Below, one piece after another: positions 1,535 to 59,600 of a stretch of 64,000 bases of DNA (the first letter of the stretch is position 1; each line of letters starts with the position of its first letter). The DNA comes from Candidatus Omnitrophota bacterium (GTDB lineage Bacteria; Omnitrophota; Gorgyraeia; Duberdicusellales; 4484-171): the NCBI GenBank assembly GCA_043820815.1, contig JBDRDJ010000028.1:22307-86306 (forward strand). Reading direction: 5' to 3'. The position numbers and the translations under genes were made by a program. Under the pieces are notes generated by a model. That model made no database searches and was not told where the DNA came from. It saw nothing but the letters and a program-made list of their open reading frames with translations.

Positions 1535-1867
1535 ATGGAAGAACAAAAGAAATTGTACATTGGAAATTTAAGTTATGACACCAGCGAAAGTGACCTGAGA
1601 GGGTTCATCGAAGAGAAAGGGGTAACCCCAACAGAAATAAAAATTATTTCTGATAAATATACTGGAAAATCAAAAGGTTTTGGTTTTGCAGAGTTTGAAA
1701 CTGAGGAACAGGCTCAAGCCGCTATCGATGCTTTAAACGAGCAAGAATTCAGCGGCAGAAAGTTAACCGTAAACAAAGCAAAGAAAATGCAGCCCAGAAA
1801 AGACAACTTTGGCGGCAGTGGCGGTGGCGGCGGACGTAACTCAGGTTATCGTAATAACAGATATTAA
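1535..1867 (+). CDS. RRM-type RNA-binding protein with Gly-rich tail
   Basis: RNP-2 LYIGNL and RNP-1 KGFGFAEF motifs, with a C-terminal GGSGGGGGRNSGYRNNRY tail. RBS AGGAGAAAAAAGAG lies upstream. Confidence 0.85.
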   Translation: MEEQKKLYIGNLSYDTSESDLRGFIEEKGVTPTEIKIISDKYTGKSKGFGFAEFETEEQAQAAIDALNEQEFSGRKLTVNKAKKMQPRKDNFGGSGGGGGRNSGYRNNRY

Positions 1868-1973
1868 TTTAAAGTAGAATGCAATCGCAATCAACGGACG
1901 ATGGTATAAAGGCGAACCATTATTTTTACCATTAGCGTCCCTTTTTCTTTCTTATAGAGGTAATTTTTTTAGT

Positions 1974-2013
1974 CCGCGGGGTAATAATTATTTACCTTGC
2001 GGGGTTTTTGTTT
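1974..2013 (+). terminator. Rho-independent terminator candidate
   Basis: CCGCGGGGTAA (1974-1984) pairs with TTACCTTGCGG (1992-2002), including two G-U pairs. It is followed by GGTTTTTGTTT. Confidence 0.6.
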
Positions 2014-2052
2014 GTAAGGATTTTATTACAATGTATTTAAAGGAGGGCTAAA

Positions 2053-2262
2053 ATGCATACGGGAAAGATTAAGAAGTTAATTCTTGATAAAAGTTTTGGT
2101 TTTATTGCCGATACGGACGGTAATGATGTATTTTTCCACAAAAATAGCCTTGTTGGTATTGATTTCAGTGATTTGGCAGGGGATGAAGAAGTCCAATTTG
2201 ACGTTGAGAAAACCCCCAAAGGGCTTAATGCTACCAACGTAAGCCTTGTAAGCAAATCTTAA
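2053..2262 (+). CDS. cold-shock domain protein (CspA family)
   Basis: 69 aa. GKIKKLILDKSFGFI and VFFH match the RNP1/RNP2-like motifs of CSD proteins. RBS AAGGAGGG lies upstream. Confidence 0.85.
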   Translation: MHTGKIKKLILDKSFGFIADTDGNDVFFHKNSLVGIDFSDLAGDEEVQFDVEKTPKGLNATNVSLVSKS

Positions 2263-2336
2263 TCGGATTTTTTGAAGTCAGCAGCCTTCCGATTAATATA
2301 GCATTAAATTTTCTGGAGAAAATACTTTTGAATATA

Positions 2337-2375
2337 CCCCCTCTGTAATGTAATCCATTGCAGAGGGGTTTTTTA
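2337..2375 (+). terminator. Rho-independent terminator
   Basis: CCCCCTCTG (2337-2345) pairs with CAGAGGGG (2361-2368), followed by TTTTTT. Confidence 0.7.
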
Positions 2376-2495
2376 TTTTAAATAAAGCTAAAAAGAATAT
2401 TAAAATGATAACAATTTTCCAAATAACCGTAACTTTACATATTTGTTTGAACCTTAAGTGTAAAGTTAGGGAACTTTGCTTTTAATCTTTCCCGT

Positions 2496-2993
2496 ATGCC
2501 AGTAAAACAAGAACCAATAAATATCAAGATAAGAATTTCTAAACAGAAGCTGTATCTTTGTAAGAGCAAAAGGATGATTAAGCAATACTCAATATCAACA
2601 TCAAGATACGGCATTGGCAATAAGCTCAACAGCAATAAAACACCATTTGGCCTGCACAGAATTTACAGCAAAATCGGCAAAAATGCGTTGATAGGAGCTA
2701 TTTTTAAAAAGAGGCGCTTCAGGGGAAAATATTCCAAGATATATAAGAAGTCAGCTCCAGATAGAACTGATTTTATTACAACACGCATCATAAGGTTAGA
2801 AGGCTTAGAGAAGGGCATTAATAAGGGTATGGGCATTGATTCTTTAGAGAGGTGTATTTATATTCATGGCACCCCTAATGAAGCTTTAATCGGTAAGCCG
2901 GTATCTTGCGGATGCATAAGATTGAAAAACAAAGATATAATCGAGTTGTTCAATTTAGTAAAAAGAGGCAATTTAGTTAAAATTGAAAGGTAG
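2496..2993 (+). CDS. L,D-transpeptidase catalytic (YkuD) domain protein
   Basis: Active-site motif HGTPNEALIGKPVSCGCIRL (His ... Cys-x-Arg). No signal peptide is seen at the N-terminus. Confidence 0.75.
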   Translation: MPVKQEPINIKIRISKQKLYLCKSKRMIKQYSISTSRYGIGNKLNSNKTPFGLHRIYSKIGKNALIGAIFKKRRFRGKYSKIYKKSAPDRTDFITTRIIRLEGLEKGINKGMGIDSLERCIYIHGTPNEALIGKPVSCGCIRLKNKDIIELFNLVKRGNLVKIER

Positions 2994-3120
2994 ATGTGTA
3001 AGCAACGGGATTGGTTTTCGAATCTGATAATGATTTTTTTAACGGGAACCAGCTGATCATTTCTTCCTGCCGGCCTCAAAATAAACAATTAAAAAGGCGA
3101 TAATGCTGGAGATGTATTCT

Positions 3121-3221
3121 TGGACATTCCCCAAAATTAATATATTGTTTTTCATAACGAGTTTAACCATAAACAGTTAAGAAAAATAATATCTGAATTC
3201 CTGTATTTTGGGGAATGTCCA
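3121..3221. repeat. perfect 17-bp inverted repeat pair, part of a MITE-like repeat-dense region
   Basis: TGGACATTCCCCAAAAT (3121-3137) and its exact reverse complement (3205-3221) are separated by 67 nt. A third copy lies at 23273-23289. Confidence 0.6.
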
Positions 3222-3308
3222 TAATCTCAGTAATCTTTCCCCAATCTCAGTAATCAATTGGGAGTTTCTTAGATTTCAAAAATGGGGAAACTCCCGATGT
3301 ATTCTGTT

Positions 3309-3336
3309 TTACTTTCTACTTTAGATATGGTACAAT
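3309..3336 (+). promoter_or_regulatory. sigma-70-type promoter candidate for the sigma-54 activator gene
   Basis: TTACTT, 16-nt spacer, TGg-TACAAT (extended -10, 3328-3336). Confidence 0.4.
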
Positions 3337-3433
3337 ATTTTTTCTTTTTGGCTTAGGCAGCAAGAGAGCGATGAGCCACAGTCTTATTAGAGATGTCCGA
3401 TTTAAACCCTAACGCATTCCCCGCAATAAAGTT

Positions 3434-4813
3434 ATGGTAAGCGTCAATAAACAACCTGTTATTTTAGTTGTGGATGATGACCCTTCAGTTTTAGAGGCAT
3501 TCAAGGTTATTTTAGACGAGCAATTTAAGATTTTGACTGCTCAGAGCGGAAAGAGCGCATTGGATACGGTTTCTAAAGAACCGGTTGATCTGGTTTTCTT
3601 AGACATTGCCATGCCCGATATAGACGGCATGAAGATTCTGCGTACGATGAAGGAATTGGATGCTAATTTATCAATAATTATCGCAACCGCAACCGACAGC
3701 GCGAAAATGGCTGTTGAGGCAATGCGGCTGGGAGCCTGTAATTATATCACAAAGCCTTTTGACCCTGATGAAGTGGTAGCTGTGGCCCAGAAGGCCCTGG
3801 AACGGGAAGAACTGCTGAAAGAAGTTGCTTATTTTCGGTCTCAAAGAGAAGAAATAAAGTTTGATAATATTGTGGGCAAAAGCAAAAGCATGGAAGAGAT
3901 ATACGGCATTATCGAAAAAGTCGGCAAAAACGATACCACCATTATTATTACCGGCGAAAGCGGAACAGGAAAAGAATTAATCGCCCAAGCAATACACTGG
4001 AACGGCCTGAGGCAGCAGAAACCGTTTATTCCCGTTAATTGCGCAAGTATTCCTGAAAACTTGCTTGAAAGCGAATTTTTCGGCTACGAAAAAGGCGCTT
4101 TTACCGATGCCGCTTCTCAGAAATTAGGCATGCTGGAACTGGCTGACCAAGGCACGCTGTTTATGGATGAGATCTCAAGCCTCAAGTTAGATATGCAGGC
4201 AAAGCTTCTGCGCGCTTTGGAAGAGAAGGAAATTAGAAGGGTTGGCGGAACCAAGATAGTTAAGGTAGATGTACGCATTATCTGCGCTGCTAACGTTGAC
4301 TTAAAAGCTTTGGCACAGGAAGGAAAGTTTCGCTATGACCTATATTATCGCTTGAATGTCGTGCCTATACATTTGCCGTCACTTAGAGAACGCAGGGAGG
4401 ATATCCCTTTGCTGGTCGCGCATTTCTTAAGAAACTTTAACAAGGCGTTCAGAAAAGAGATAGAAGGGTTTACGGATGATTCTTTAGAGTACTTAATTAA
4501 TTATGATTGGCCGGGTAATATCCGGGAGCTTAAGAATGTTATTGAGCGTTTGGTTGCCTTAAAGGATAAAGGAGTTATTACATCTAAGGAACTGCCTTTT
4601 GATATTTTTATAAAAAATAAGCTGATAAAGAGCTTCCGGGCCGAAGGCGGGCTCAAAGAAGCACGCCGGGATTTCGAGAAACAATACATAGAAGCTGTGT
4701 TAGAAAGAGTCGGCGGCAATCAAATTAAAGCGTCTAAGATATTGAGTATTCACCGTAATGCACTTTTTAACAAGATAAAGAGTTTAGGGATAGGAGGGCG
4801 AAGATGCGGCTAA
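3434..4813 (+). CDS. sigma-54-dependent response regulator (NtrC family enhancer-binding protein)
   Basis: N-terminal receiver (VVDDDPS ... FLDIAMPDIDG). AAA+ domain with GESGTGKE Walker A and the GAFTDA sigma-54 contact motif. C-terminal Fis-type HTH (QIKASKILSIHRNALFNKI). Confidence 0.9.
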   Translation: MVSVNKQPVILVVDDDPSVLEAFKVILDEQFKILTAQSGKSALDTVSKEPVDLVFLDIAMPDIDGMKILRTMKELDANLSIIIATATDSAKMAVEAMRLGACNYITKPFDPDEVVAVAQKALEREELLKEVAYFRSQREEIKFDNIVGKSKSMEEIYGIIEKVGKNDTTIIITGESGTGKELIAQAIHWNGLRQQKPFIPVNCASIPENLLESEFFGYEKGAFTDAASQKLGMLELADQGTLFMDEISSLKLDMQAKLLRALEEKEIRRVGGTKIVKVDVRIICAANVDLKALAQEGKFRYDLYYRLNVVPIHLPSLRERREDIPLLVAHFLRNFNKAFRKEIEGFTDDSLEYLINYDWPGNIRELKNVIERLVALKDKGVITSKELPFDIFIKNKLIKSFRAEGGLKEARRDFEKQYIEAVLERVGGNQIKASKILSIHRNALFNKIKSLGIGGRRCG

Positions 4814-6651
4814 TCAGATTTATATCTTTTTTTGCATTGTTAGTCACTATAGCCGTTGGCGCAGAGGCGGCGGCTGGAGAAACCAGCACAATTGAATTAC
4901 AGCCTATAGTTATAACGCCAAGAAGAACACCTGTTGGGCTAAGCGCAACAACAGAGAACGTAATCGTAATCAATGAAGAAGAAATAAGCCGGCTGCCTGC
5001 AAGGGACTTAGGCGAAGTTTTGGGGTATACCGCAGGTGTTGATATTGATCCTCGCCAGGGATTTGGCAGGGCAACATCAATCAGTATCCAGGGCTCTGAC
5101 TCCCGCCATGTAAGGGTAATGATTGACGGCATACCTTTAAATAACCAGGCTTCCGGCGAGGTTGACCCTTCCCGCTACTCAATTGAGAACGCAAAAAGGA
5201 TAGAAGTTATTAAAGGGTCAGCTTCGAGTATTTGGGGTTCAAGCTTAGGCGGAGTGATTAATATTATTACCAAGGATACGGGAGATACTTTAATTCCCAA
5301 GGGCAATTACACAACCTCTTTTGCAGAATTCGGCACTAAGAAAGACACTCTTGACTTGTCGGGTAAATTAGGGCAATTGGGTTATTATGTTTTCGGGAGC
5401 TTGATGGAATCAGGGGGCAAGGATTCAAGGGATGATGTTATTGAGAAAAAAACATTCGGCAAGCTATCATACGATTTTAAGGATGCCGGCAAATTAACCG
5501 CTTCTTTCGGTTATAACAAAGCAGATGTAAACAGCGGTGTTTGGCCTGATGGAACCTGGTGGGGCCAGCCTTACCGCATACATTACGGCAAGGCCGGCTG
5601 GGAGGCTGAATTAGGCGCAACAGCCGTGAGCGCTGAATTAAAACATTCCCGTCAGGATATTATTACAGAAATTTACCTTGATGCCGCTGATCAAGAGCCG
5701 TTTTCTACGATTAAATCCAAAGATGCGCTTTATCAGCTAAGTTTAAATTCAACCACTCATATTGGAAAAGATGACCTATTAGTTTTAGGGTTCGATTCCG
5801 ATTGGGATAATTTAAAATCTACTTATCTTACCAAAGCAAAGGGTCTAAATGTACAGGCTCCTTATGCTAATTATGCGTTGAAATTAGAGCCATGGGATTT
5901 TAATTTTGGATTACGTTATGACCATACCAGTGAATTTGGAGATGAACTTAGCCCTTCTTTGGGTGCGATATACCATGTTAAAAGCATTCCCGATACTCTT
6001 GTGCGGGCAGGAGTTTCCCGGGCATTTAATGCTCCGCCTCTTCTTTGGAAGTACTATGACTTCAGCCTAAGCGGCTTGACTATTAACCCTGATATTACAC
6101 CTGAACGTGCCCGGGTGTATGAGCTTGGATTGGAAAGTATGCCGCTACCTGAATTATGGCTTAAGCTTTCTTTATACAGAGCGGATGTGTCTGATGCTAT
6201 CAGCAATGCCCAAAGCGGGAGCGGCCAGTGGTATAAAAAGAACTTTGAGAAGTTCCGGAGGCAAGGGGCAGAGTTACAGTTTAATGCCGGCCTTTTTGGC
6301 GGGTTAAGTTTATTTGGAGGCGGCGCTTTTAACGATATTGAAGATAGAGCTACAAGACAAACCGTAGAAGGCGGAGGTAAACCCCGCTATAGTTATGATT
6401 TAGGGCTGTCATACAACAGTGAAAACGGGCTGAATGTGTTAGTTCGCGGTTATTATAATTACTGGAACGAACCGGCATCAAGCGAGCCTAATGATAGAAA
6501 AATGCTTTGTGACATAAAGATTTCTCAAAAATTCAAAAACGCAGATTTTTTCTTAAATGTACACAATTTTACTAATAGCAAATACTGGAGAGATTATTAC
6601 TTTCCTGTTCCCCAGAGGTATTTTGAGGGAGGAGTCACTTTTAAATGGTAA
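4804..6651 (+). CDS. TonB-dependent outer-membrane receptor
   Basis: Signal peptide, TonB-box-like IELQPIVITP, plug-domain motifs (IEVIKGSASSIWGS), and a beta-barrel ending in an aromatic residue (VTFKW). The start overlaps the activator stop by 10 nt. Confidence 0.85.
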   Translation: MRLIRFISFFALLVTIAVGAEAAAGETSTIELQPIVITPRRTPVGLSATTENVIVINEEEISRLPARDLGEVLGYTAGVDIDPRQGFGRATSISIQGSDSRHVRVMIDGIPLNNQASGEVDPSRYSIENAKRIEVIKGSASSIWGSSLGGVINIITKDTGDTLIPKGNYTTSFAEFGTKKDTLDLSGKLGQLGYYVFGSLMESGGKDSRDDVIEKKTFGKLSYDFKDAGKLTASFGYNKADVNSGVWPDGTWWGQPYRIHYGKAGWEAELGATAVSAELKHSRQDIITEIYLDAADQEPFSTIKSKDALYQLSLNSTTHIGKDDLLVLGFDSDWDNLKSTYLTKAKGLNVQAPYANYALKLEPWDFNFGLRYDHTSEFGDELSPSLGAIYHVKSIPDTLVRAGVSRAFNAPPLLWKYYDFSLSGLTINPDITPERARVYELGLESMPLPELWLKLSLYRADVSDAISNAQSGSGQWYKKNFEKFRRQGAELQFNAGLFGGLSLFGGGAFNDIEDRATRQTVEGGGKPRYSYDLGLSYNSENGLNVLVRGYYNYWNEPASSEPNDRKMLCDIKISQKFKNADFFLNVHNFTNSKYWRDYYFPVPQRYFEGGVTFKW

Positions 6652-6690
6652 AAAGAGTGCACAATATAATGAATTGCACTCTTTTGTGTG
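6651..6690 (+). terminator. terminator hairpin after the TonB-dependent receptor
   Basis: AAAAGAGTGCA (6651-6661) pairs with TGCACTCTTTT (6675-6685), an 11-bp stem with a 13-nt loop. Confidence 0.55.
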
Positions 6691-6854
6691 CATAAAATCC
6701 GCCGCATAAAACCATCTGCGCAAGTTGTTTCGCAAATTGAAAAATAATAAATTAGTTTATTCATGCATCCGCATATCAATGATTGTCTTTGTTTTTACAG
6801 CCCGCCGCTTTAAAAGTTTCCCTAAAAAATTCCAAAATGCAAAAATGTAATTAA

Positions 6855-6870
6855 TGGCACGATACTTGCT
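6855..6870 (+). promoter_or_regulatory. sigma-54 (-24/-12) promoter
   Basis: TGGCACGATACTTGCT matches the consensus TGGCACG-N4-TTGCW at every defined position. It lies 20 nt upstream of the signal-peptide ATG at 6890. Confidence 0.6.
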
Positions 6871-6889
6871 TAATCAAAGATGTAACCGG

Positions 6890-8491
6890 ATGAACAAGAG
6901 AACGCTATTTATTTTATTAACCATTTTGCTTTTAGTTATGTTACTCGTTGGTATTAAAAAACGTTCGCATGTGCTCACTTCTTCTAATTTGTATGGCGGT
7001 ACTCTTGTATGGGGAGCGGTCAATAAGCCTACAATAATAAACCCGATTTTAACCACTCAGAGCATTTCTATGGGGGTTATTAATTTAATATTTAACGGCT
7101 TGGTTAGAATTAATTCAAAAGGGGAAATAGAGCCTGATTTGGCACAGTCTTGGGATATTTCCCAGGACGGCCTTGTGTATACCTTTCATTTAAGGGAAGG
7201 CATAAAGTTTCACGACGGCAGAGAGTGTACTGCTTATGATGTAAAATTTACTTATGATAAAATCGTTGATCCGGATATTAATTCGCCCTTTAAATCTTTT
7301 TACCAATTAGTCAGGGAATTTAAGGCGGTTGATAAATTAACTTTTCAGGCAGCCTTAAGAAAACCTTTGTTTTCTTTTATTTACAGGTTTACCAGAGAGA
7401 TAGTTCCTAAGCATATCCTGGAAAATAAGGATTTGAGCAGATGTGCATTTAATTATCATCCTATAGGAACAGGGCCGTTTAAGTTTAAAGAGTGGAAACA
7501 AGACGGCCGGATTGTCCTTGATTATAATCCTGATTATTACGAGGGAAGGCCGTATTTAGACAGGGTTATCGCTAAAACTTATACTGATTCCCGCAATCTC
7601 TGGGCGGCTCTTATGCGCGGCGAAGTGGATTTTGTGCTTTATATAGGGCGGCAAGATTATGAAATTGTAAGGGATGACCCGGCATTTAAAGCTTATAACT
7701 ATTTTTTTGATTTCTATTATACCTTAATTTACAACCTTAACGATCCCGTGCTGGCCGATAAAAGGGTAAGATACGCACTTGCTTATGGCATAGACAGAAA
7801 GGAGTTGATTGAGAAAGTGGCTTTCGGCTATGGTTTAGAATGTAACGGCCCTTTTTATCCGGATTCTTTAGGTTTTAATCCCGATGTTGAGCCTTTTAAA
7901 TATAGCCCCCAGCGCTCACGCCAGCTATTAGCCCAGGCAGGCTGGGAGGATACTGACGGTGATGGTATTTTGGGAAAAGAAGCAAAAGAGTTGGAGTTGA
8001 GCATTTTGGTTGACGAGAGAAATGACATCTACAAAAATATAATAATGGTTTTAAGGCAGCAGCTTCAGAGAATTGGAGTAAAGACACAAGTACAGCTATA
8101 CAACGACGACAGTGAACTTACCGATAAGTTTCTTGCCCAAAACAAGCCGCAGGCGCATTTAAAAATGCTTATGGCAGGGATGGACCCTGATCAGCAGGCG
8201 CCGCACGATTGGTGTTCCGAAATGCCCCGTGGCCTCGGTAAATTGTGGATATATAGAAACGATGAAGTAAACAGGCTTTTTATGACAGGGAAAGTCAGTC
8301 GTGATAAAGAACAACGGGATTTGATTTATCGAAGAATTCACCGCCTTATTTATGAAGACCAGCCGGCATGTTTTTTATATTTCCCATTTATTTTTCACGC
8401 AGTTTCCAATAAGTTTGAAAATACAGATGATTTCTTTACGGTGAATATGCCTTTTTATACAATAAAAGATTGGCGCCTTAAATCTAATTAA
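6890..8491 (+). CDS. periplasmic solute-binding protein, family 5 (OppA/NikA/DppA-like)
   Basis: The N-terminus MNKRTLFILLTILLLVMLLV is a signal or anchor sequence. Family-5 hallmarks follow (GGTLVWG ... PDLAQSWDISQDGLVYTFHLREGIKFHDG). The track start at 6854 falls inside the sigma-54 promoter, so I moved the start to the in-frame ATG at 6890. Confidence 0.8.
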   Translation: MNKRTLFILLTILLLVMLLVGIKKRSHVLTSSNLYGGTLVWGAVNKPTIINPILTTQSISMGVINLIFNGLVRINSKGEIEPDLAQSWDISQDGLVYTFHLREGIKFHDGRECTAYDVKFTYDKIVDPDINSPFKSFYQLVREFKAVDKLTFQAALRKPLFSFIYRFTREIVPKHILENKDLSRCAFNYHPIGTGPFKFKEWKQDGRIVLDYNPDYYEGRPYLDRVIAKTYTDSRNLWAALMRGEVDFVLYIGRQDYEIVRDDPAFKAYNYFFDFYYTLIYNLNDPVLADKRVRYALAYGIDRKELIEKVAFGYGLECNGPFYPDSLGFNPDVEPFKYSPQRSRQLLAQAGWEDTDGDGILGKEAKELELSILVDERNDIYKNIIMVLRQQLQRIGVKTQVQLYNDDSELTDKFLAQNKPQAHLKMLMAGMDPDQQAPHDWCSEMPRGLGKLWIYRNDEVNRLFMTGKVSRDKEQRDLIYRRIHRLIYEDQPACFLYFPFIFHAVSNKFENTDDFFTVNMPFYTIKDWRLKSN

Positions 8492-8509
8492 AGGAAGGAG
8501 GTGAGAAAG

Positions 8510-8608
8510 ATGAAAGTTATTAAAAAAGGCTCGGATAAGATTTTTAACGGTGTAGATCCCAAAGGCTGCTGCTGGCCGGCAGGGACTATCGGTGCACGCC
8601 CCTACTAA
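8510..8608 (+). CDS. 32-aa candidate RiPP precursor peptide (MKVIKKGSDKIFNGVDPKGCCWPAGTIGARPY)
   Basis: ATG 8510 is preceded by GGAGGTGA (8497-8504) with a 5-nt spacer, and TAA is at 8606-8608. It sits immediately upstream of the rSAM/SPASM gene. It is too short for the ORF track. Confidence 0.6.
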   Translation: MKVIKKGSDKIFNGVDPKGCCWPAGTIGARPY

Positions 8609-8762
8609 TGGTTGAGGGAGGGTAATTAAAATATCCTGAAAAAGAGATGTTTTGCAGTAAGTTTATGGGCGGCCGACCAGAACTTGCTGCAACCATAGTT
8701 GTAAAAGCCACCGATTTATCAACATCAGATAACGGATTGGATCATATTGTTAGGAGCGGGAA

Positions 8763-10127
8763 ATGAAACTGTCGAAATTCAATTTATTGGTTAAAGATTA
8801 TCCTGTCAAAGGCGAATACCTTTTGTTTAATACACGCACTCAGGCGTTGATTACCGTAACTAATAAATTTAAGGAGTTTTTAGACAGCCTTGAAGCCTCA
8901 AACGTTACGGTTTACGGTATGGCGATAAAAGAAAAAATAAATGCATTGAAAGAAAACGGAATTGTAGTTGAGGACGAAAAGGAAGACCAGGATAAATTAA
9001 GTGATTTTTTTCGGCAGCTAAAATATGAATCAAATGTCTTGCCTTTTGAGGCGACAATTCTAACCACTTACAATTGTAATTTTAAATGCGTGTATTGTTT
9101 TGAAGAATCGGTCAGGGATAATATATTCTTAGATATCAAGACCAGCGAGGCAATAATAAACTGGCTAAAGAGAAGAATTCAGCAGAGAGGCTATAAACGG
9201 ATTTATCTGGTTTATTACGGAGGAGAGCCCTTGCTTAATGTCAAGCCGGTTTACGATATATCCTGGCATATGCAGGCATGGGCTGATAAGAATGGTGTTG
9301 AATTCGGTTTCGGTATAATTACCAACGGAAGCCTTGTAAATCCGGAGTTAATTGATAAATTGTTAACCGTAGGCTTAAAAGAAATCCGTGTCAGTTTAGA
9401 CGGCGACAGAAATGCACACAATAAGAAAAGGCCGTTTTCTGATGGACGGCCTACCTTTGACCTTATTGTTAATAATATAAAAAGAGTTATGGGAAAAGTC
9501 AATGTGGGAATTTCGGGGAATTTTGACCGCAAGAACTACAAGAGTATCTACAAACTTTTAGATTATTTAGAAGAACAGGGAATCTTGCGTAAATTACACA
9601 GGATTAATTTTGCACCCTTGACTCCCCGGTTCGGGCCAAAGAATAATCCCGGAGCAGTTGAATTAAAAGAATGCTTTTCTTTTGTGGGAAAAGAGGGATT
9701 ATTTAAGGAAGTGACAGCTATTACAAAAGAGCTAATGCGGCGCAGGCTGACATTGACTACCGGTTTATCGGTTAATATCTGCCCTTTGATTATGCAGGAC
9801 GGAGGTATTACCATTGACCCCGGGGGCGTAATTTACAAATGTAACGCTCTGGTAGGTTATCGGGAATTTTCCATCGGTAATGTCGCCGATGAGGGGTTTA
9901 ACGAAAAGTTTAGTGAATTCTTAAATATTGACGCCTGGAATAAATGCCCACGTGATTGCCCTTATATTCCCATGTGCCAGGGGGGATGCAGATTTTTTTC
10001 CTATTTAGAGAATAAGAATTTTTGTGCGTTATCCTGTAAAAGGGATTATTTTGATAAGATTACTCCCGAATTGATTAAGCTGGAGTACGATAAACTTACA
10101 AACGACTATCAAAGCAGTTTGCAATGA
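8763..10127 (+). CDS. radical SAM/SPASM-domain peptide-modifying enzyme with N-terminal RRE-like domain
   Basis: CNFKCVYC is the CX3CX2C radical SAM motif. The C-terminal SPASM signature is present (CPLIMQDGGITIDPGGVIYKC ... CPRDCPYIPMCQGGC ... C). About 95 aa precede the rSAM core, typical of a PqqD-like recognition element. Confidence 0.9.
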   Translation: MKLSKFNLLVKDYPVKGEYLLFNTRTQALITVTNKFKEFLDSLEASNVTVYGMAIKEKINALKENGIVVEDEKEDQDKLSDFFRQLKYESNVLPFEATILTTYNCNFKCVYCFEESVRDNIFLDIKTSEAIINWLKRRIQQRGYKRIYLVYYGGEPLLNVKPVYDISWHMQAWADKNGVEFGFGIITNGSLVNPELIDKLLTVGLKEIRVSLDGDRNAHNKKRPFSDGRPTFDLIVNNIKRVMGKVNVGISGNFDRKNYKSIYKLLDYLEEQGILRKLHRINFAPLTPRFGPKNNPGAVELKECFSFVGKEGLFKEVTAITKELMRRRLTLTTGLSVNICPLIMQDGGITIDPGGVIYKCNALVGYREFSIGNVADEGFNEKFSEFLNIDAWNKCPRDCPYIPMCQGGCRFFSYLENKNFCALSCKRDYFDKITPELIKLEYDKLTNDYQSSLQ

Positions 10128-11875
10128 AGAGAGCAAGAGAGCTTTTATCTATTTTACGGCCGCATAGGAAAAAGATCATTTTCGCCGGCATATCGATTCT
10201 TGCTGTCAACTTAACGGGGTTGGCTTTTCCCTGGGGTATTAAGATTATCATTGATGAAGTTCTGGTTAAAAAAGATTTCTTTTTGCTAAATAGCTTGGCA
10301 GGGGCACTTGTTCTGATTTTCTTGATACAGTTCTATTGCGGATTTATGCGCGAATACTTAGTTTCTTCTGTGGGTGAAAATGTAGTTTGTGAGTTGCGTA
10401 ACAGGCTCTACTGGCACATAGAGAGATTATCGGTGAAATATATAGAGGATACGCCTATAGGTAAGATTATATCGGGAGTTATCGGCGATGTTGAGAGTAT
10501 ACGGAATTTCCTGTTTGGCGGGCTTATAGATTTTATTTACTCTTTCCTTAACGTATTTTTCGTCCTTATCATCTTGCTGTTTCTGGATTGGAAGCTAACC
10601 CTGGTTTCTTTAATATTTTTGCCCGCGTTCGGGCTCACCTTCTTTAAGCTTACCCCCCGCCTGCAGAAGAAGTTTGGGGCAGTGAGGGAAAAATACGCGG
10701 AGTTAACCGCACACTTAAACGAAGTATGTATTGGTATCCGCGTTGTTTGCGGTTTTGGCAAAGAAAGATACGAGGCAGACAGGTTTAATTCTACTCAGAG
10801 CAAAATTCTCAAAAACTCTATGGCAGGCCACAGGCTGACGATAGGGTTATGGATGGGGTCAGAGTTAGTCAGTTCTTTAGGGCTTGTTACCATTATATGG
10901 TTTGGAACCCGGGCCGTATTTTCCGGGCGTATAACCCCGGGGACATTGATGGCGTTTTATTCCTATACAGGAATGCTTTTTTTCCCCGTAATTAAGATGA
11001 CGATTATTAACAATTTTTATCAAGAAGCTGCTGTTGCAATGGAGCGGATTGATAGAATTTTAGCCGAAGAGCCGGCAGTAAAAGAATCTCTAAATCCCGT
11101 TAAGATTAATAAGGTAAAAGGAAATGTAATATTTGACGGGGTAAGTTTCAGCTACGATGGAAAAAGGGAAGTTCTCTCTGGAATTGACATCGGCGTAAAA
11201 GCATCCCAAACCATAGCCCTAGTGGGTAAAAGCGGCGCCGGTAAAACCACCATGATAAATTTGCTACTTAGATTTTACGATCCCGATAAAGGAGGAATTT
11301 TTATTGACGGATACAACATCTGCGATTTGGATTTGAATTCGTACCGTTCTAGTATTGCTATGGTTCTTCAGGATGATTACCTCTTTAACTTAAGCGTTAG
11401 AGAGAACATTCTCTATGGCAAGCCGCAGGCTTCTTTTGATGAAGTTGTCAGAGCCGCCTGTTTAGCAAACGCTCATCAGTTTATTACTGAATTAGCCGAT
11501 GGTTACGATACAGAGATAGGCGAAGGAGGGGTTAAACTTTCTTTCGGGCAAAGACAAAGGATTTCTATCTCCCGGGCAATAATAAGAGACCCGGCCATTT
11601 TAATTCTGGATGAGGCGACATCGTGCGTAGATTCAGAAACTGAACGCCTTATCATCGAAGGAGCTTATAAAAATGTGATATGCGGCCGTACCACGTTCAT
11701 AATTGCCCATAGGCTTTCAGCAATAACGTATGCTGATAGAATTATTTTTATCGAAGGCGGCAGAATAATTGAGGAGGGTGCTCACCAGCACCTTTTAGAT
11801 AAAAAAGGCCGATATTGGAAAATGTGGACAGAACAAACCCGATATAGCTTTACATCGAAGGTGCCGGCTGCATAA
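10124..11875 (+). CDS. ABC exporter, fused permease/ATPase (MsbA/type I exporter fold)
   Basis: A six-helix TMD is followed by an NBD with GKSGAGKTT (Walker A), LSFGQRQR (signature) and ILILDEATS (Walker B). An ATGA overlap with the rSAM stop suggests translational coupling. There is no N-terminal C39 peptidase domain. Confidence 0.9.
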   Translation: MKRARELLSILRPHRKKIIFAGISILAVNLTGLAFPWGIKIIIDEVLVKKDFFLLNSLAGALVLIFLIQFYCGFMREYLVSSVGENVVCELRNRLYWHIERLSVKYIEDTPIGKIISGVIGDVESIRNFLFGGLIDFIYSFLNVFFVLIILLFLDWKLTLVSLIFLPAFGLTFFKLTPRLQKKFGAVREKYAELTAHLNEVCIGIRVVCGFGKERYEADRFNSTQSKILKNSMAGHRLTIGLWMGSELVSSLGLVTIIWFGTRAVFSGRITPGTLMAFYSYTGMLFFPVIKMTIINNFYQEAAVAMERIDRILAEEPAVKESLNPVKINKVKGNVIFDGVSFSYDGKREVLSGIDIGVKASQTIALVGKSGAGKTTMINLLLRFYDPDKGGIFIDGYNICDLDLNSYRSSIAMVLQDDYLFNLSVRENILYGKPQASFDEVVRAACLANAHQFITELADGYDTEIGEGGVKLSFGQRQRISISRAIIRDPAILILDEATSCVDSETERLIIEGAYKNVICGRTTFIIAHRLSAITYADRIIFIEGGRIIEEGAHQHLLDKKGRYWKMWTEQTRYSFTSKVPAA

Positions 11876-11897
11876 CTTTTTTAATGGAGGAATCGCC

Positions 11898-12428
11898 ATG
11901 GTATTTAAGAATCTGAACATTTTAGTTATTGATGACAGTATTTCAGTAAGGATTTCAATGGCCGAAGAATTAGCGATGCTCGGCTATCAGGTGTATACGG
12001 CTGCAAGCAGGGAAGAAACAGAGAAAATTCTCGAAAATCATATCGTTGATATTGTCTTTCTTGATTTAAAGCTGCCCGGCGTTACAGGGCTTGAATATCT
12101 GGAGCAAATTAGGCGCAGAGAAGAAAACATTGTAGTAATTATAATGACTGCTTATGAATCCATGCCAACAGCTGTTGAGGCTATTGAAAAAGGCGCTCAT
12201 GAGTATATCATAAAACCAATAAGCCCGGGGCATCTTGAACTGGTGATGAAACAGGCGTTGATGCGCTTTTGCCTTGAGCAGGAAAGAGATATGGCTAACG
12301 ATAAGAGGATGGACGTAATAAAGAGGTTTAACAGTGACCTGAAAGACGCGGAAGCACTTAAGCAGGCACTAAAAGCCCAGGTGAACAGCCTTCTTGGGGA
12401 GTTAGGCAGGCCGCCCAAATATAAATGA
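11898..12428 (+). CDS. response regulator, receiver domain with short helical C-terminal tail
   Basis: ILVIDDS ... FLDLKLPGVTG ... YIIKP receiver motifs. RBS GGAGG lies upstream, 22 nt after the ABC exporter stop. Confidence 0.85.
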   Translation: MVFKNLNILVIDDSISVRISMAEELAMLGYQVYTAASREETEKILENHIVDIVFLDLKLPGVTGLEYLEQIRRREENIVVIIMTAYESMPTAVEAIEKGAHEYIIKPISPGHLELVMKQALMRFCLEQERDMANDKRMDVIKRFNSDLKDAEALKQALKAQVNSLLGELGRPPKYK

Positions 12429-12496
12429 CACGATGAGCCTTCCTGCGGAATAATACCGGCGGCCAAAAATAATGGATTAAACAATAAATTATTATT

Positions 12497-14290
12497 ATGA
12501 CGGAAAGGTCTAAAAGGAAATTCAAACGGTTTTTACTAAATTTATTTTACCACAGGCTGTGGGTGCAGATTGCGGCAATTCTTCTTGCGTTAGTTACTGT
12601 TCCGGTGATTACCTTAGGGACGTTACTCATCAAAACATCAGAAGAGGCAGTGCGCAGTTCAGTGCTTAACAATCATAAGGAGATAGTAAAGAGAGCCTCG
12701 GGAGAGATTGAGCTCTTTGCCAGAGGAGCAAAAAGTGTTTTGTATGCTGCGGCAGCGATTATGGGAGAAGTTTCTTCTGCTGAATGGAAACAGGAGACAG
12801 TGCTGGTAGAATTAGTTTTGAACCAGCCGGTTTTTATAAGAGTTTCTTCTGTGGATTTATCCGGTAAAGAAATAGCCAGTTCTGAACTGGGAAGAGAGTC
12901 AAAACGCTATTATTCTAATGAGGTGCTTGAAGAGATTCAGAAGGGAAAAGTTTATATTTCTCAGGTTAAATTCCTCGATAATAATAATCCTTATGTAACC
13001 ATGAGTGCCCCGGTAAAGAAAGACGGCCAAATCGCAGGGGGGATAATTGCTGATGTAAACTTGCGGGGGATATGGGATATTGTGGATAATATCCAGATAG
13101 GCCATACCGGAAAAGCTTTTTTAGTAACAGATAAGGGCGTATTAATTGCCCACCATGATAAGAAACGGGTTCTTAAAAAAGAGAACTTTAGCAGTTATAA
13201 AGATGTCCAATTGGTTTTATCTTCAGAAACCGGCGCAATTGAATTAGAAGATGCATCGAAAGAAAGATGGATTAGTTCTTACGCTCCTATTTCTGATTTA
13301 AGCTGGGCTATTGTATTAAGGCAGAAGCAGGACGAAGCTTATTTATTTTCTAAGGTGATGAGGATGCAGGCGTGGGTAATTATAGGCATAAGTGAATTGC
13401 TGGCGGTTGTTGTTAGTATTTTTATGGCGCGGTTTTTGGTAAGGCCGGTTAAAACTTTAGCCTCGAGAATGAAGAGTGTAGCCGCCGGCGACTTAGACCA
13501 TAAAATCGGCTCAAGAAGGCGAGATGAAATCGGGGAATTAATAAGGTCTTTTAACGATATGATTGAGAAGTTAAAAAGAGCCAGTGCGCGCGAGCGGCTC
13601 TCTGCAATCGGAGAAGCAGCTGCCTGGATAGCACATGAGCTTAAGAACTCTTTAGTTTCCATAAAGACTTTCATCCAGTTGTTTCCTCGAAAATATAAAG
13701 AAAAGAATTTTGTGGATAAGTTTAGCAAGCTGATCCCTGAAGAAATTAAGCGCTGGGAGAATATGCTTAAAGAGCTGTCTGACTTTTCATACCATTCTGA
13801 CCTGCGCAGGCAAAACGTTGATGTGAAGGATTTATTAGATAACTTATTGCAGATAATGGGGGGAAGGCTTCTTGAGAAACGAATAAGCGTTGATTACAAC
13901 ACCGAGGGTGATAATTTTATTATATGGGCTGATAGTGAAAGGTTAAAGCAGGTCTTTATGAATTTAATTATTAATGCCGTAAACGCGATGGCGGACGGCG
14001 GTGCGCTCAGGATATCTTTACGCTCAATAGAAGGCAGCGGCCAGCTTGCAGACAGCTCTATAGAAGCAAGAGTCCAGGATACAGGATGCGGGATACCCAT
14101 GGAAGAACTGGATAAAATATTTGAACCGTTCTATACTGCGAATAAAGGCGGGATGGGCTTAGGGCTTTCAATAAGCCAAAGGATTGTTGAACAGCACGGC
14201 GGGAAGATTAAGGCAGAAAGTAAACTAAATACCGGTTCTGTCTTTACCGTAATATTGCCAAAAGATCCGTTATTGTTAAGGGCTGTGTAA
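12497..14290 (+). CDS. sensor histidine kinase with large extracytoplasmic (Cache-like) domain, HAMP, HisKA, HATPase_c
   Basis: Two TM segments flank a loop of about 270 aa. HAMP region (RPVKTLASRMKSVAAGDLD), H-box HELKNSL, N-box NLIINAVNA, G-boxes DTGCGI and GGMGLGL. Confidence 0.85.
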   Translation: MTERSKRKFKRFLLNLFYHRLWVQIAAILLALVTVPVITLGTLLIKTSEEAVRSSVLNNHKEIVKRASGEIELFARGAKSVLYAAAAIMGEVSSAEWKQETVLVELVLNQPVFIRVSSVDLSGKEIASSELGRESKRYYSNEVLEEIQKGKVYISQVKFLDNNNPYVTMSAPVKKDGQIAGGIIADVNLRGIWDIVDNIQIGHTGKAFLVTDKGVLIAHHDKKRVLKKENFSSYKDVQLVLSSETGAIELEDASKERWISSYAPISDLSWAIVLRQKQDEAYLFSKVMRMQAWVIIGISELLAVVVSIFMARFLVRPVKTLASRMKSVAAGDLDHKIGSRRRDEIGELIRSFNDMIEKLKRASARERLSAIGEAAAWIAHELKNSLVSIKTFIQLFPRKYKEKNFVDKFSKLIPEEIKRWENMLKELSDFSYHSDLRRQNVDVKDLLDNLLQIMGGRLLEKRISVDYNTEGDNFIIWADSERLKQVFMNLIINAVNAMADGGALRISLRSIEGSGQLADSSIEARVQDTGCGIPMEELDKIFEPFYTANKGGMGLGLSISQRIVEQHGGKIKAESKLNTGSVFTVILPKDPLLLRAV

Positions 14291-14309
14291 TTCATAAAGC
14301 GGGGGATGT

Positions 14310-14957
14310 ATGAGCAAGAAAATTCTGATAGTTGATGACCACAGCATTATGCGTGAGGGCCTGCGTGCTTTGCTTGAAGAGGTACAGGATTTCAAAGTAA
14401 TCGGAGAGGCGGAAAACGGGCGTGTGGCATTGCGAATGGTACAGGAGTTTTTACCTGATGTAGTGATTATTGACATTGCAATGCCTCATTTAAACGGAAT
14501 CGAAGCAACACGCCAGATTATTTCCAAGTTTCCCGCTGTTAAGGTCATTATGCTTTCAATGCAGTCCGGCAGGCAGTTTGTGGAAGAGGCGCTTAAGGCC
14601 GGCGCTTCAGGTTATCTCTTGAAAGATAACATTTTTAATGAGTTAATCCTTGCCCTTCATACGGTAACTGAAGGCAGAATATATCTATGTCCGGAAATAG
14701 CCAAAGTGGTAGTTAAAAACCTTGTGCACCGGCTAAAAAACGATGTCCCTTCACAAATTAATATACTTACACCGCGGGAACGCGAAGTGCTTCAGCTCTT
14801 AGCAGAAGGTAAATCGACTAAACAGATTGCCCGCTGTCTGGGTGTGAGCATAAAGACCATTGAAACCCACCGTCAACAGGTTATGCGTAAATTAGACATC
14901 TATAGTATAGCCGAGCTTACAAAATTCGCTATCCGTGAGGGCATAACATCTCTTTGA
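14310..14957 (+). CDS. NarL/LuxR-family response regulator
   Basis: Receiver (ILIVDDH ... IIDIAMPHLNG) plus a C-terminal LuxR HTH (LTPREREVLQLLAEGKSTKQIARCLGVSIKTIETHR). Confidence 0.9.
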   Translation: MSKKILIVDDHSIMREGLRALLEEVQDFKVIGEAENGRVALRMVQEFLPDVVIIDIAMPHLNGIEATRQIISKFPAVKVIMLSMQSGRQFVEEALKAGASGYLLKDNIFNELILALHTVTEGRIYLCPEIAKVVVKNLVHRLKNDVPSQINILTPREREVLQLLAEGKSTKQIARCLGVSIKTIETHRQQVMRKLDIYSIAELTKFAIREGITSL

Positions 14958-56641: not shown

Positions 56642-59600
56642 ATGATATTATTCGTATGGATGGGGTCTTTTGTTTGTATAGCGATACTTGTTGCTGTATC
56701 TTTGCCTTCCGATAAAGGCCGTATGGAAAAAAAACTAGAAGAAGCCGAGCAATATTCCAAGAAGCAAGCCCAACGCATGCAGAGTAAAGTTTATTCTTTA
56801 AAAGGGCATATGTCCGGCCTTAAGCAGGAACTAAGTGCCGAGAAGGACAATATTATAAGCCTGCAAAATCAACTTAAAGCCGTTCAAGAGAAGGAAGAAG
56901 AGCTTAAGGAAAAATTACGCAAGCATAAAACATGGGTTGATGAGAGCCAGGAGCATGTCGATAAGGCAAAATCCAGCCGCGAAGAACTAAGACAGCAGTT
57001 AATTAGCAAAGAAAAGGAGCTTGAGAATGAGTTTTCCAAGAATGTCGCCTTAACCAGGCAGATCGAAGAAAGCCATAGGCATTTTGATGAATTGGAGAAA
57101 AAGAACGGGCGTTTGCTTGATAATATTATGTCTCTCGAGAAGAAGATAATGGGCTTTGAGTCAAAATTAAAAGAAAATAAAGCTGAGTTGAACAGGCATA
57201 TTGATATAGCCGCGCAGCTTAAGAAAAAGGAAGAAGAGAGTGAATGGGTAGCTAAAGCAGAGTACGTAAAATTAGCTGAACAGTGCAATGAGCTCAAAAA
57301 TAAGCTTGAAACAAGAAATAAAGAATTAGAAATTAAGGAACAGGCGATTAAAGATCTCGATATCGAAAGAATCAGGTTTAAAAACAAACTACGCGGTATA
57401 GGCCTTATGGAGGGTTTAGAGGATCCTTTTGATTCTACGGCTGCTCTTGAAGTGCCCGGGGCCGGGGAGCAGATATCCGCAGATCAGGCAACGAAAGAGG
57501 AAGCTGGGGGGATTGAAGAAGAGCCTAAAGCAAATGATTCGAGTATTACCGAGTCAGAAAAAGAGGATAAACCCGAAGATTTTGAAGGGGTAACGGCCGC
57601 TGAACCTAAGAAACAGGTTAAAGGGAAGCTGCTTGTCCACGAAGTACCTTCCGGTATAGATTTATCGAAAATAAGAAATATAGGAATCATAGCCCATATT
57701 GATGCCGGAAAAACCACTTTAACCGAGAGGATTTTATTTTATACCGGCAAATCTCACAAAATCGGAGAAGTCCATGACGGATGCGCCCAGATGGACTGGA
57801 TGAAACAGGAGCAGGAAAGGGGCATAACAATTACTTCCGCCGCCACCATGTGTCAGTGGAACGGGTATAATGTGAGCATTATCGATACTCCCGGACACGT
57901 TGATTTCACGGTTGAGGTTGAGAGAAGCCTTCGGGTTCTTGACGGGGCTGTTGTTGTTTTTTGTGCAGTATCAGGTGTTGAGGCTCAGTCTGAAACTGTC
58001 TGGCGCCAGTCCGATAAATATAAAGTTCCCAAAATTGCATTTATTAACAAGATGGATAGAGTCGGCGCTAATTATTTCAGTGTGTATAAAGATATTAAGG
58101 AAATGCTCCGGGCCAATGCCGTCCCCATCGAAATACCAATGGGGTCTGAGAGTGAATTTAAAGGGGTTATAGATCTAATTAAAAAGAAGGCTTATTTTTA
58201 TGAAGATGAGTCTTTGGGGAAAGATTTCCGCGAAGAGGAGATTCCGTCTCAATATACGGAGCTGGCCACAGAATATTATGAAATTATGGTTGAAAGAACT
58301 GTTGCTTGTGATGAAAACTTAATGCAGAAATATCTTAAAGCAGAGGATCCGATTACGCCTGAAGAATTGATGGCAGCAATAAGAAAAGGCACGCTTTCTA
58401 ATAAAATAATTCCTGTTCTTTGCGGTTCGGCATTGAAGAATAAAGGTGTTCAAAAATTGCTCGATGCGGTTACTCAATATCTGCCTTCTCCCTTAGATAT
58501 TCCGGCTATTGAGGGCAATCTTGCAGATGATCCTCAGAAAAAGATCCAAAGGCGCCCTGACCTGCATGAACCTTTTTGTGCCCTTGCTTTCAAGGTTCAG
58601 GCTGATGCGCATATAGGAAAGCTTGTTTATCTCAGGGTTTATTCAGGTTGTGCTTTTGCCGGTTCGTATCTCTTTAACGCTACCAAGGGAAAGAAAGAAC
58701 GCATATCAAGGATTGTGCGTATGCATGCTAATCAAAGGGAAAGCCTGAAATATATGTGTGCCGGCGAGATTGTTGCTTGCATTGGATTAAATCACACGGT
58801 AACAGGCAACACTATTTGCGACCCGGAAAACCCGGTAATTTTAGAATCAATAGAATTTCCAACGCCTGTTATTTCGGTAAGCATAACTCCTGCCAGCCGC
58901 TCTGATCAGGATAAATTGAACAAGGCTCTTTTTAAGCTGTCAGAAGAAGATCCCACGTTTTCTGTTGATACCGATTCCGAGAGCGGAGAAATTATCTTAT
59001 CAGGCATGGGAGAACTTCATCTTGAAATTATTGCCGAAAGGCTTAAAGATGAGTTTAAAATTAACGCCGAGATAGGCAAACCAAAAGTTTCCTACAGAGA
59101 AACAATTCAATCTGAAGTGAAACAGGAATATAAGCATGTAAAGCAAACCGGCGGCCACGGCCAATACGGCCACGTAATTATGGAAATTTCGCCAAAGGCA
59201 AGGGGTGAAGGGTTTGAATTTAAGGACAGTGTTACAGGAGGAAGAATACCCAAAAATTACATATCTTCTATTGAAAAAGGCATTATCGAAGCATTAAAGA
59301 AGGGTTCTTTTGCAGGATTTCCCGTTGTTGATATTAATGTAAACTTAATTGACGGATCATTTCATGAGGTTGACTCATCAGACATTGCTTTCAGGTTGGC
59401 TGCAATAGGCTGTTTCAGGGAAGCTATGCTTAAAAGTTCTATTGTATTGCTTGAGCCTTTTATGTCGCTTGAAATTTCTACTCCGGAAGAATATACTAGT
59501 AATATTGTGGGCGATATATGTTCGCGCCGGGGCAGGATAATCAATATGGAGCAGAAAGTAAATCAGAAAATAATATCCGCAGAGGCCCCTTTGACGGAGT

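Follow-up and report, generated by a model that had tools for sequence, protein, structure and literature searches.

A small gene with an adjacent cysteine pair beside a radical SAM/SPASM enzyme in Omnitrophota: a putative RiPP precursor in an uncharacterised gene cluster

The small gene and its conservation

We analysed a stretch of 64,000 nucleotides (64 kb, hereafter the window) from a Candidatus Omnitrophota bacterium (contig JBDRDJ010000028.1), which carries an uncharacterised gene cluster with a 32-codon open reading frame (ORF) between the genes for a family-5 periplasmic solute-binding protein and a radical S-adenosylmethionine (SAM)/SPASM enzyme. From the sequence of the window alone, the ORF had been proposed to encode the precursor of a ribosomally synthesised and post-translationally modified peptide (RiPP), possibly of the streptide type. 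Our comparisons indicate that the precursor reading is right and the streptide analogy wrong, the chemistry and function discussed below being predictions.

The ORF translates as MKVIKKGSDKIFNGVDPKGCCWPAGTIGARPY. Its boundaries, translation and Shine-Dalgarno sequence agree with the original prediction (Table 1), as does its distance of 18 nt from the binding-protein stop (8491) to ATG 8510, and a gap of 154 nt separates it from the start of the radical SAM gene. The Shine-Dalgarno octamer, which had been singled out as the best match of its kind in the window, indeed occurs in a single copy in the 64 kb. A GTG at 8501 was considered as an alternative start and rejected, since it lies inside the Shine-Dalgarno sequence. 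Downstream, the stop of the maturase gene and the start of the ATP-binding cassette (ABC) exporter gene overlap (ATGA at 10124–10127), which bears out the translational coupling proposed for the exporter. The exporter lacks a C39 peptidase in a Pfam scan, which returned ABC_membrane and ABC_tran besides overlapping weak P-loop/AAA matches.

Table 1 Genes and sequence features of the cluster (positions in the window; RRE, RiPP recognition element; HTH, helix-turn-helix)
Feature	Position	Strand	Remarks
Sigma-54-dependent response regulator (receiver, AAA+ and Fis-type HTH; AtoC/NtrC-like)	3434..4813	+	NCBIfam, Pfam
TonB-dependent outer-membrane receptor (Plug and 22-strand barrel, BtuB-sized)	4804..6651	+	Pfam, NCBIfam
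Palindrome TGCAC-N8-GTGCA	6675..6692	+	about 165 nt 5' of the promoter; candidate enhancer site
Sigma-54 promoter TGGCACGATACTTGCT	6855..6870	+	perfect -24/-12 consensus
Family-5 periplasmic solute-binding protein	6890..8491	+	ORF listed from 6854, 545 codons; PF00496 5e-86
Shine-Dalgarno GGAGGTGA	8497..8504	+	5-nt spacer to ATG 8510
Putative precursor peptide gene	8510..8608	+	ATG 8510, TAA 8606-8608; 32 codons
Intercistronic hairpin between peptide and maturase	8652..8692	+	16 pairs; loop GCGGCCGA at 8669-8676
Radical SAM/SPASM peptide maturase with RRE-like N-terminal domain	8763..10127	+	454 codons
MsbA/HlyB-type ABC exporter	10124..11875	+	583 aa
Receiver-only response regulator	11898..12428	+	not in most orthologous loci
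Sensor histidine kinase (dCache_1, HAMP, HisKA, HATPase; AtoS-like)	12497..14290	+	
NarL/LuxR-type response regulator	14310..14957	+	kept in L001, L004

Relatives of the 454-aa maturase were sought in a set holding one genome per species and in a metagenome collection, and three further homologues were looked up (L096-L098). The family comprises more than 120 maturase clusters of 54–71% identity, chiefly in the uncultured phylum Omnitrophota. At all loci with a 54–68% identical maturase and upstream DNA available (n = 15; L001-L004, L016-L022, L037 and L096-L098, hereafter the orthologous loci), an ORF of 28–33 codons occupies the equivalent place, examples being MEIIRKGSDQVFAAPEPRNCCFPAGTLGARYH, MEVIKKGSDNVSEVGPLGCCFPVGTENLRIR and MEVIRYGSDTVIGPRSCCFPSGTMGLRLK. 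The link between a precursor-type small gene and the radical SAM/SPASM enzyme, as first proposed for the window, is thus supported by 15 of 15 orthologous loci, each with its conserved small ORF. The refuting outcome named with the original prediction, orthologous maturases that lack such a neighbour in other genomes, is clearly contradicted by these loci. All 11 orthologous peptide genes examined have GGAGGTGA or GGGGGTGA 4–6 nt upstream of the ATG.

A hidden Markov model (HMM) trained on 11 orthologs only was searched against 32,233 stop-to-stop small ORFs from 95 loci. It recovered the held-out peptides of L003 (E 1e-13) and L023 (E 2e-9); besides the training sequences and L037, a copy of the training peptide L018, nothing else matched under E 0.1. 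Synonymous codons vary between loci at the conserved Gly, Ser, Cys, Pro, Thr and Arg of the orthologous peptides. Over two aligned conserved blocks (nine leader and eight core codons), all pairs of ten orthologs show 264 synonymous against 213 non-synonymous codon differences, and this synonymous excess has the signature of selection on the protein.

The exact window peptide has no entry in a collection of 15 billion proteins, hence it was never called in the source metagenome-assembled genome, and the ORF was overlooked by gene callers in L096-L098 too. An NCBIfam scan of 21 related peptides (E up to 10) gave no matching precursor model, and the window peptide matched no family in NCBIfam (E up to 10) or Pfam (E up to 1). 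From the comparative sequence evidence we regard the ORF as very probably a genuine RiPP precursor. Its product is almost certainly modified by the neighbouring radical SAM enzyme, judging by the peptide gene, which always adjoins that of the maturase, also in a sub-family (see below) where it lies downstream of the enzyme. The peptides would add to the radical SAM/SPASM RiPPs a precursor family with an unusual adjacent Cys-Cys core, present at at least 15 loci, and the system offers directly testable parts, namely the enzyme, its 32-residue substrate, the binding protein and the promoter.

The maturase and its relatives

The radical SAM motif CxxxCxxC (C105-x3-C109-x2-C112; PF04055 at 1.6e-15) is invariant in 25 homologues, and seven SPASM-like cysteines are all invariant (C340-x14-G-x4-C360, C395-x3-C399-x5-C405-x3-C409 and C425), with a CX3C spacing where the canonical one is CX2C. 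The AlphaFold model of the maturase (predicted local distance difference test, pLDDT, 88.6) begins with a beta3-alpha3 unit like that of an RRE (strands at 7–11, 18–23 and 29–33; helices at 34–41, 53–64 and 72–88; pLDDT about 90). In a sequence-profile search the nearest solved chain was CteB (5wgg; 1.5e-27, ~21% identity), the maturase of the SCIFF/ranthipeptide thermocellin. CteB was also the top Foldseek match of the model (E 1e-20, template modelling score, TM, 0.67), aligned over 476 columns for 454 and 440 residues, nearly the full length of both, and was followed by anSME, TigE, SuiB and ChlB. The N-terminal RRE of CteB holds the leader as a beta-strand and its SPASM domain carries two clusters (PMC8326336); the modelled window enzyme appears to share this three-part build of RRE, radical SAM barrel and SPASM domain with two auxiliary clusters. 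The original description of the enzyme as an RRE-bearing radical SAM/SPASM protein therefore stands for the CxxxCxxC motif, the seven conserved cysteines and the RRE-like unit, and an RRE is likely on the model, with the reservations given further below.

Among NCBIfam models, the maturase came closest to the geopeptide maturase TIGR04280 (282.5 bits vs a cutoff of 400); further matches below cutoff were CefB, TIGR04463, FlmE/OhkG, Clo7bot, PapB (126 bits vs 340) and, lower down, SCIFF (87 vs 425) and QhpD. Of these, geopeptide, CefB, TIGR04463, PapB, SCIFF and QhpD, the nearest families, have Cys-rich substrates or thioether products.

A small ORF also adjoins maturases of 28–40% identity, and the Cys pair is present there too, as in L023 (...QCCWPPGTEVFHSPTE), L028 and L031 (...SRCC[WF]WIR...), L033 (...MMCCAFIFGGTGGY), L051 (...GRCCILIEGT...) and L040 (MQKRITVIKKGIGRAPNAMRCCPGGVGSMKTN; 32 residues). 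In a second sub-family, MKLQVVKKGS[RK]..KK[ILV]L[WY]C[WF]W.., aromatic residues flank the only Cys, and the peptide gene lies downstream of the enzyme (L026:1964-2041, L029:8375-8455, L030:2579-2656 and L048:8404-8478). Its maturases share 35–38% identity with the window enzyme, and in the two long loci, L029 and L048, genes for a family-5 binding protein and a kinase come next.

The locus L040 connects the window to the geopeptide family, a hypothetical equivalog in NCBIfam. Its maturase reaches 546.9 bits on TIGR04280 and is 28% identical to the window enzyme, and the locus (1626-7419) runs in the order TonB-dependent receptor, CC peptide, maturase, PF04392 binding protein and sCache/HisKA_3 kinase. 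As in the window, the peptide gene is directly upstream of the enzyme, and genes for a receptor of the TonB-dependent type, a periplasmic binding protein and a Cache kinase are also present. The L040 peptide has VIKKG near its N-terminus and a CC pair 10 residues from its C-terminus, and it resembles the window peptide in size, in an N-terminal [VI][IV]KKG segment and in the CC pair. The differences lie in the core (CCPGGVGS vs the window-type CC[FYW]PxGTxxxR), in the binding protein, which is of family 5 in the window, and in the kinase, which is dCache/HisKA there; the window further adds the ABC exporter and the sigma-54 activator. Since the L040 enzyme passes the geopeptide cutoff and the window enzyme misses it, the window system is, on sequence scores, a sister of the geopeptide family and not a member. 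Literature searches on geopeptide, TIGR04280, CefB/OhkG/FlmE and PF04392, and on RiPP with TonB and sigma-54, turned up no paper that mentions the geopeptide family and none that describes the system of the window. These loci offer a first concrete sequence picture of what the orphan geopeptide label in NCBIfam denotes.

Core residues and the predicted crosslink

The orthologous peptides follow a leader consensus M-x-[VI]-[IL]-[KR]-[KRY]-G-S-[DNE], nine N-terminal residues conserved as strongly as the core, and a core consensus P-[RLK]-[GN]-C-C-[FYW]-P-x-G-T-x-x-x-R-x-x. Residues were counted over 15 distinct peptides, the window peptide included and that of L037, which is identical to L018, counted once. 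Relative to the first Cys (position 0, 15/15), Pro occupies position -3 in 13 peptides; position +1 is Cys in 14 and Ser in one; position +2 (Trp22 in the window) is Phe in 12, Tyr in two and Trp in one. Pro at +3, Gly at +5 and Arg at +10 are found in 15 of 15, and position +6 (Thr26 in the window) is Thr in 13, Ser in one and Leu in one. The tail beyond the Cys pair has 11–12 residues in every orthologous peptide.

These counts decide against the KxxxW reading of the window peptide, under which a StrB-like enzyme would join Lys18 to Trp22 through a streptide-type carbon–carbon crosslink across K18-G-C-C-W22. The Lys18 position holds Arg in 10 peptides, Leu in four and Lys in one, and Trp at position 22 is found in the window peptide alone; as neither residue is conserved, the reading was rejected and such a crosslink is very improbable. 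The K-x-x-x-W spacing does exist, but in the window peptide only, and SuiB is among the Foldseek matches of the maturase model (E 4e-15), but CteB, anSME and TigE are structurally nearer and the best 25 NCBIfam matches of the maturase include no streptide-family model. What the cluster shares with streptide (StrA/StrB, SuiB) is a short precursor beside a radical SAM/SPASM enzyme, in the window only likely to bear an RRE, and an exporter, and streptide production is tied to streptococcal cell–cell signalling (PMC9389541).

The alternative offered alongside the streptide analogy, namely that the vicinal pair Cys20-Cys21 is the reactive element, fits the conservation of both residues and is the one we favour. 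A Cys-based crosslink in the core would have slightly better than even prospects. It would most likely be a thioether with Cys20 and/or Cys21 as donor; among the residues close by, Thr26, which follows Cys21 by five positions, is the best candidate for the acceptor. The SCIFF residues Cys32 and Thr37, likewise five residues apart, are linked in vitro, and the conserved C-C-x-P-x-G-T is compatible with a Cys donor whose Thr acceptor lies a few positions off (PMC8326336). A single case hints that Cys21 and Thr26 may be partners: the L021 peptide (265-360; TCSFPVGL), the sole ortholog with Cys-Ser, also has Leu for the conserved Thr and has hence lost both residues. The SCIFF precursor differs in having six dispersed Cys where the window precursor has two adjacent ones. 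The host of the window cluster is a diderm, and the cluster includes genes for a receptor, a binding protein and a kinase, which SCIFF loci in Clostridia are not known to carry.

The main chemical rival is a crosslink centred on the aromatic residue, a cyclophane or another C-C, C-N or C-O linkage in place of the thioether, with the cysteines serving as cluster ligands in the course of catalysis or forming a vicinal disulfide. An aromatic residue follows the Cys pair in 15 of 15 orthologs, the distant sub-families are rich in Trp and Phe (CCWW, WCWW, YCFWF), and the cyclophane-forming YhhB, AmcB and GrrM/OscB, as well as ChlB, SuiB and TigE, appear among the weaker sequence or fold matches of the maturase; furthermore, a non-crosslinked Cys touches the auxiliary cluster in CteB (PMC8326336). 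However, the cyclophane families reach only 49–66 bits, the top matches in sequence and structure are Cys-peptide or thioether enzymes, and in some distant CC peptides the residues that follow the pair are not aromatic (CCPGG, CCILIE), so we consider an aromatic crosslink unlikely.

Cluster context, regulation and possible function

The order activator, receptor, binding protein, peptide, maturase, exporter and kinase recurs in L001, L002, L004, L016, L017, L019, L037 and L096-L098, and the sigma-54 activator gene was found conserved upstream of the cluster in L002, L004, L017, L019, L037 and L096. The binding protein lies directly 5' of the peptide in every ortholog, the exporter 3' of the maturase in orthologs too, and the kinase 3' of the exporter in all of them. 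An AraC-type regulator takes the place of the NarL-type regulator in L096-L098. Linkage of the receptor to the maturase holds in all orthologous loci, including L003 and L020, where the receptor has shifted downstream of the kinase and is still within the cluster, and in L040. Beside maturases of 28–40% identity, a family-5 binding protein is adjacent in most loci, the Cache kinase, sigma-54 regulator and receptor are retained in many, and the kinase stands next to the maturase or the binding protein; in L033 a major facilitator superfamily (MFS) transporter stands in for the ABC exporter. The linkage of receptor, binding protein and Cache kinase to the maturase thus persists through rearrangements and down to 28% identity, which argues that the three belong to the same conserved module as the peptide. 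Such a set, carried by the systems themselves, points to signalling or nutrient capture and not to antibiosis.

The nearest solved relative of the binding protein is the Bacillus subtilis oligopeptide-binding AppA (1xoc, 2e-74), as against 1e-25 to 7e-30 for nickel-binding proteins. No permease of an Opp-type importer was found within the cluster or the 64-kb window, and no inner-membrane importer in the orthologous clusters. In the more distant L028 (1-4110, minus strand), a second family-5 binding protein and OppB/OppC-like permeases lie divergently next to the CC-peptide/maturase cluster, with a weak ABC-like match at the locus edge that may be an importer ATPase; these permeases may form the inner-membrane importer of the product in that organism.

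The sigma-54 promoter is the only match with at most one mismatch in the 64 kb, and in the spacer between receptor and binding protein no other block is invariant in L002, L004, L016, L017, L019 and L037. Neither this promoter nor the intercistronic hairpin, nor the place of receptor, binding protein and kinase in the conserved module, was part of the original prediction. A further sigma-54 promoter was sought in the peptide–maturase spacer and none was found. As the promoter overlaps the first codons of the listed ORF, the binding protein probably starts at ATG 6890 (MNKRTLF...). The palindrome upstream occurs once in the window, against 0.05 occurrences expected by chance, and is partly conserved, its left half and a T-run recurring in orthologs; we tentatively regard it as an enhancer site for the sigma-54 activator. 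It overlaps an inverted repeat, AAAGAGTGCA-N13-TGCACTCTTT at 6652-6684, directly past the receptor stop and 170 nt from the promoter downstream, which could be the terminator of the receptor gene or part of the enhancer of the sigma-54 promoter. Simple scans for terminators and sigma-70 promoters gave nothing above background. In NCBIfam, AtoS is the best match of the kinase and AtoC that of the activator, and these two form a cognate pair. L096 retains the activator and also has an AraC-type regulator after the kinase; between clades the module keeps its dCache kinase and varies in its transcriptional output.

In each of the 11 orthologous spacers folded, a hairpin of 9–19 bp lies between peptide and maturase, with differing, covarying stem sequences. 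The loop is exact in nine of them and differs in L021 (UUUAAAAU), and the loop motif is confined to the spacer except for one within-gene match in the GC-rich L003. Neither the spacer nor the full 64 kb has a match in Rfam. A 39-codon ORF at 8647-8766, which overlaps the maturase start in an ATGA and spans the hairpin, is probably not a gene: the orthologous spacers share no ORF, what is conserved in them is the loop of the hairpin, and in L004 the frame through the motif terminates directly behind it. In L023, L028 and L040 the hairpin at this place is a classical terminator with a U-tail. The hairpin may keep the precursor mRNA in excess over that of the enzyme, a reading that the covariation and these terminators favour. 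Alternatively, the short ORF could be a regulatory leader whose tandem Cys codons, with the hairpin, form a ribosome-mediated attenuator of the maturase operon that senses the supply of Cys-tRNA. Identical codons in tandem, close to where a short ORF ends, and a conserved hairpin do resemble the trp and his leaders, and the terminators of L023, L028 and L040 would suit this reading too. However, the hairpin of the window clade has neither a U-tract nor an alternative antiterminator pairing and starts 44 nt past the peptide stop codon, residues G7, S8, P17, P23, G25, T26 and R30 are conserved at the protein level through synonymous changes, the related sub-family has its peptide gene downstream of the enzyme, and the modelled RRE-like domain implies that the peptide is bound. 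We therefore give attenuation hardly any credence.

Taken as a whole, it is fairly likely that the peptide is a RiPP which is modified by the radical SAM/SPASM enzyme, crosslinked through Cys, exported, re-imported and sensed, and we infer its translation, the type and site of its crosslink, its export, re-uptake and sensing along the following lines. The short N-terminal segment (MKVIKKGSD...) would be bound by the RRE-like domain of the maturase, which would act on the conserved C-terminal core with Cys20 and/or Cys21 as thioether donor and Thr26 as prime acceptor, and the modified peptide would be secreted via the coupled ABC exporter. The operon of binding protein, peptide, maturase and exporter would be read from the sigma-54 promoter, driven by the upstream AtoC-like activator, with the hairpin holding the precursor message above the enzyme message. 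By way of the TonB-dependent receptor, the AppA-like binding protein and the dCache kinase, the mature peptide would return to the periplasm and be reported to the activator, so that it would be a self-produced extracellular signal with positive feedback. Uptake and sensing are suggested by a binding protein whose nearest solved relative binds an oligopeptide, by the lack of an importer permease in the cluster and window, and by L040, which keeps the architecture though its binding protein is non-homologous. Solute-binding proteins are known to stimulate signal-transduction receptors besides transporters (PMC10443332, PMC9602780), and our literature searches found no description of a relay of receptor, binding protein and kinase for a RiPP signal. 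The best reading of the peptide's role is a signal or, less likely, a metallophore; the signalling loop as such we put forward as possible, somewhat short of probable. The broader idea that geopeptide-like clusters are a peptide autoinduction (quorum-sensing-type) circuit of diderms, in which a crosslinked peptide of ~14 residues would be exported, come back through its own TonB-dependent receptor and be presented by its own binding protein to the Cache kinase, which would then turn on the sigma-54 promoter of the operon, is more doubtful.

The main functional rival, which we rank below a signal, is a methanobactin-like RiPP metallophore for sulfidic habitats, with thiols in the modified Cys-Cys core that would bind a metal in short supply (Ni, Cu, Co, Zn, Mo or W); the peptide would be secreted by the exporter, the receptor and binding protein would recover the metal-loaded form, and the kinase and activator would tune production. 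Methanobactin operons combine a precursor, a maturation enzyme, an exporter, a TonB-dependent transporter and a periplasmic binding protein, with autoregulation proposed, and the window cluster follows the same operon logic in placing exporter, TonB-dependent receptor and binding protein beside a RiPP precursor (PMC3621798). It differs in that no MbnB/MbnC homologues occur among the ORFs of 3434-14957, all of which are accounted for, in that its maturase is a radical SAM/SPASM enzyme, and in that its regulation is of the two-component and sigma-54 kind where that of methanobactin is of the FecIR type. The conserved Cys pair, the matches of the binding protein to NikA, CntA and other nickel or metallophore binders, and the Opp/Nik-type importer adjacent in L028 would all suit a metallophore. 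Nevertheless, we rank it lower and consider it improbable, because the core has no conserved His, Asp or further Cys ligands, the sub-family with one Cys flanked by Trp would be a poor chelator, and the binding protein scores best against the oligopeptide binder; in addition, the orthologous clusters lack an inner-membrane importer, and the cluster has a Cache kinase in place of a metal regulator of the Fur, NikR or ECF type. Less probable again is an exported antimicrobial (bacteriocin), with the receptor, binding protein and kinase as unrelated neighbours or serving immunity or induction only. Two-component induction is common for bacteriocin operons. Among the RiPPs of radical SAM/SPASM enzymes that have ABC exporters, many act against bacteria (PMC8326336). 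However, the three genes stay with the maturase through rearrangement and divergence, L040 included, neither an immunity gene nor a leader-cleaving C39 domain is present, and a core of ~14 residues is very short.

Several observations weigh against the preferred account of a crosslinked, exported and sensed peptide. The maturase misses every NCBIfam equivalog cutoff, and its chemistry cannot therefore be transferred from those families. Modelled in isolation, the N-terminal domain is weak (pLDDT 67) and has only weak fold matches, among them the lasso-peptide RRE TbiB1 (E 0.7) and CteB (E 1.5), which is why we call the enzyme only likely to be RRE-bearing; the Pfam PqqD and SPASM models do not match the maturase. 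In vivo, CteB joins Cys32 to Thr34, not Thr37 (PMC8326336), which weakens the analogy with the Cys21–Thr26 spacing, and the sub-family with a lone Cys among Trp residues means that an aromatic residue could be the actual target. The ortholog-only HMM misses the distant CC peptides, that of L040 included, so their link to the orthologous peptides rests on position, size, an N-terminal [VI][IV]xxG and the Cys pair, homology being not statistically demonstrable. No leader-removing protease or outer-membrane export component is encoded in the cluster. The sigma-54 activator is missing from L097 and L098, where AraC-type response regulators follow the kinase, hence sigma-54 control is clade-specific, and the Opp-type importer of L028 suits nutrient or metal uptake equally with signalling.

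Away from the cluster, the window encodes an EF-G-like ORF of 1033 codons (56642-59743), in which the GTPase domain does not begin until residue 343; either the protein has a long extension at its N-terminus or the ORF was called too long.

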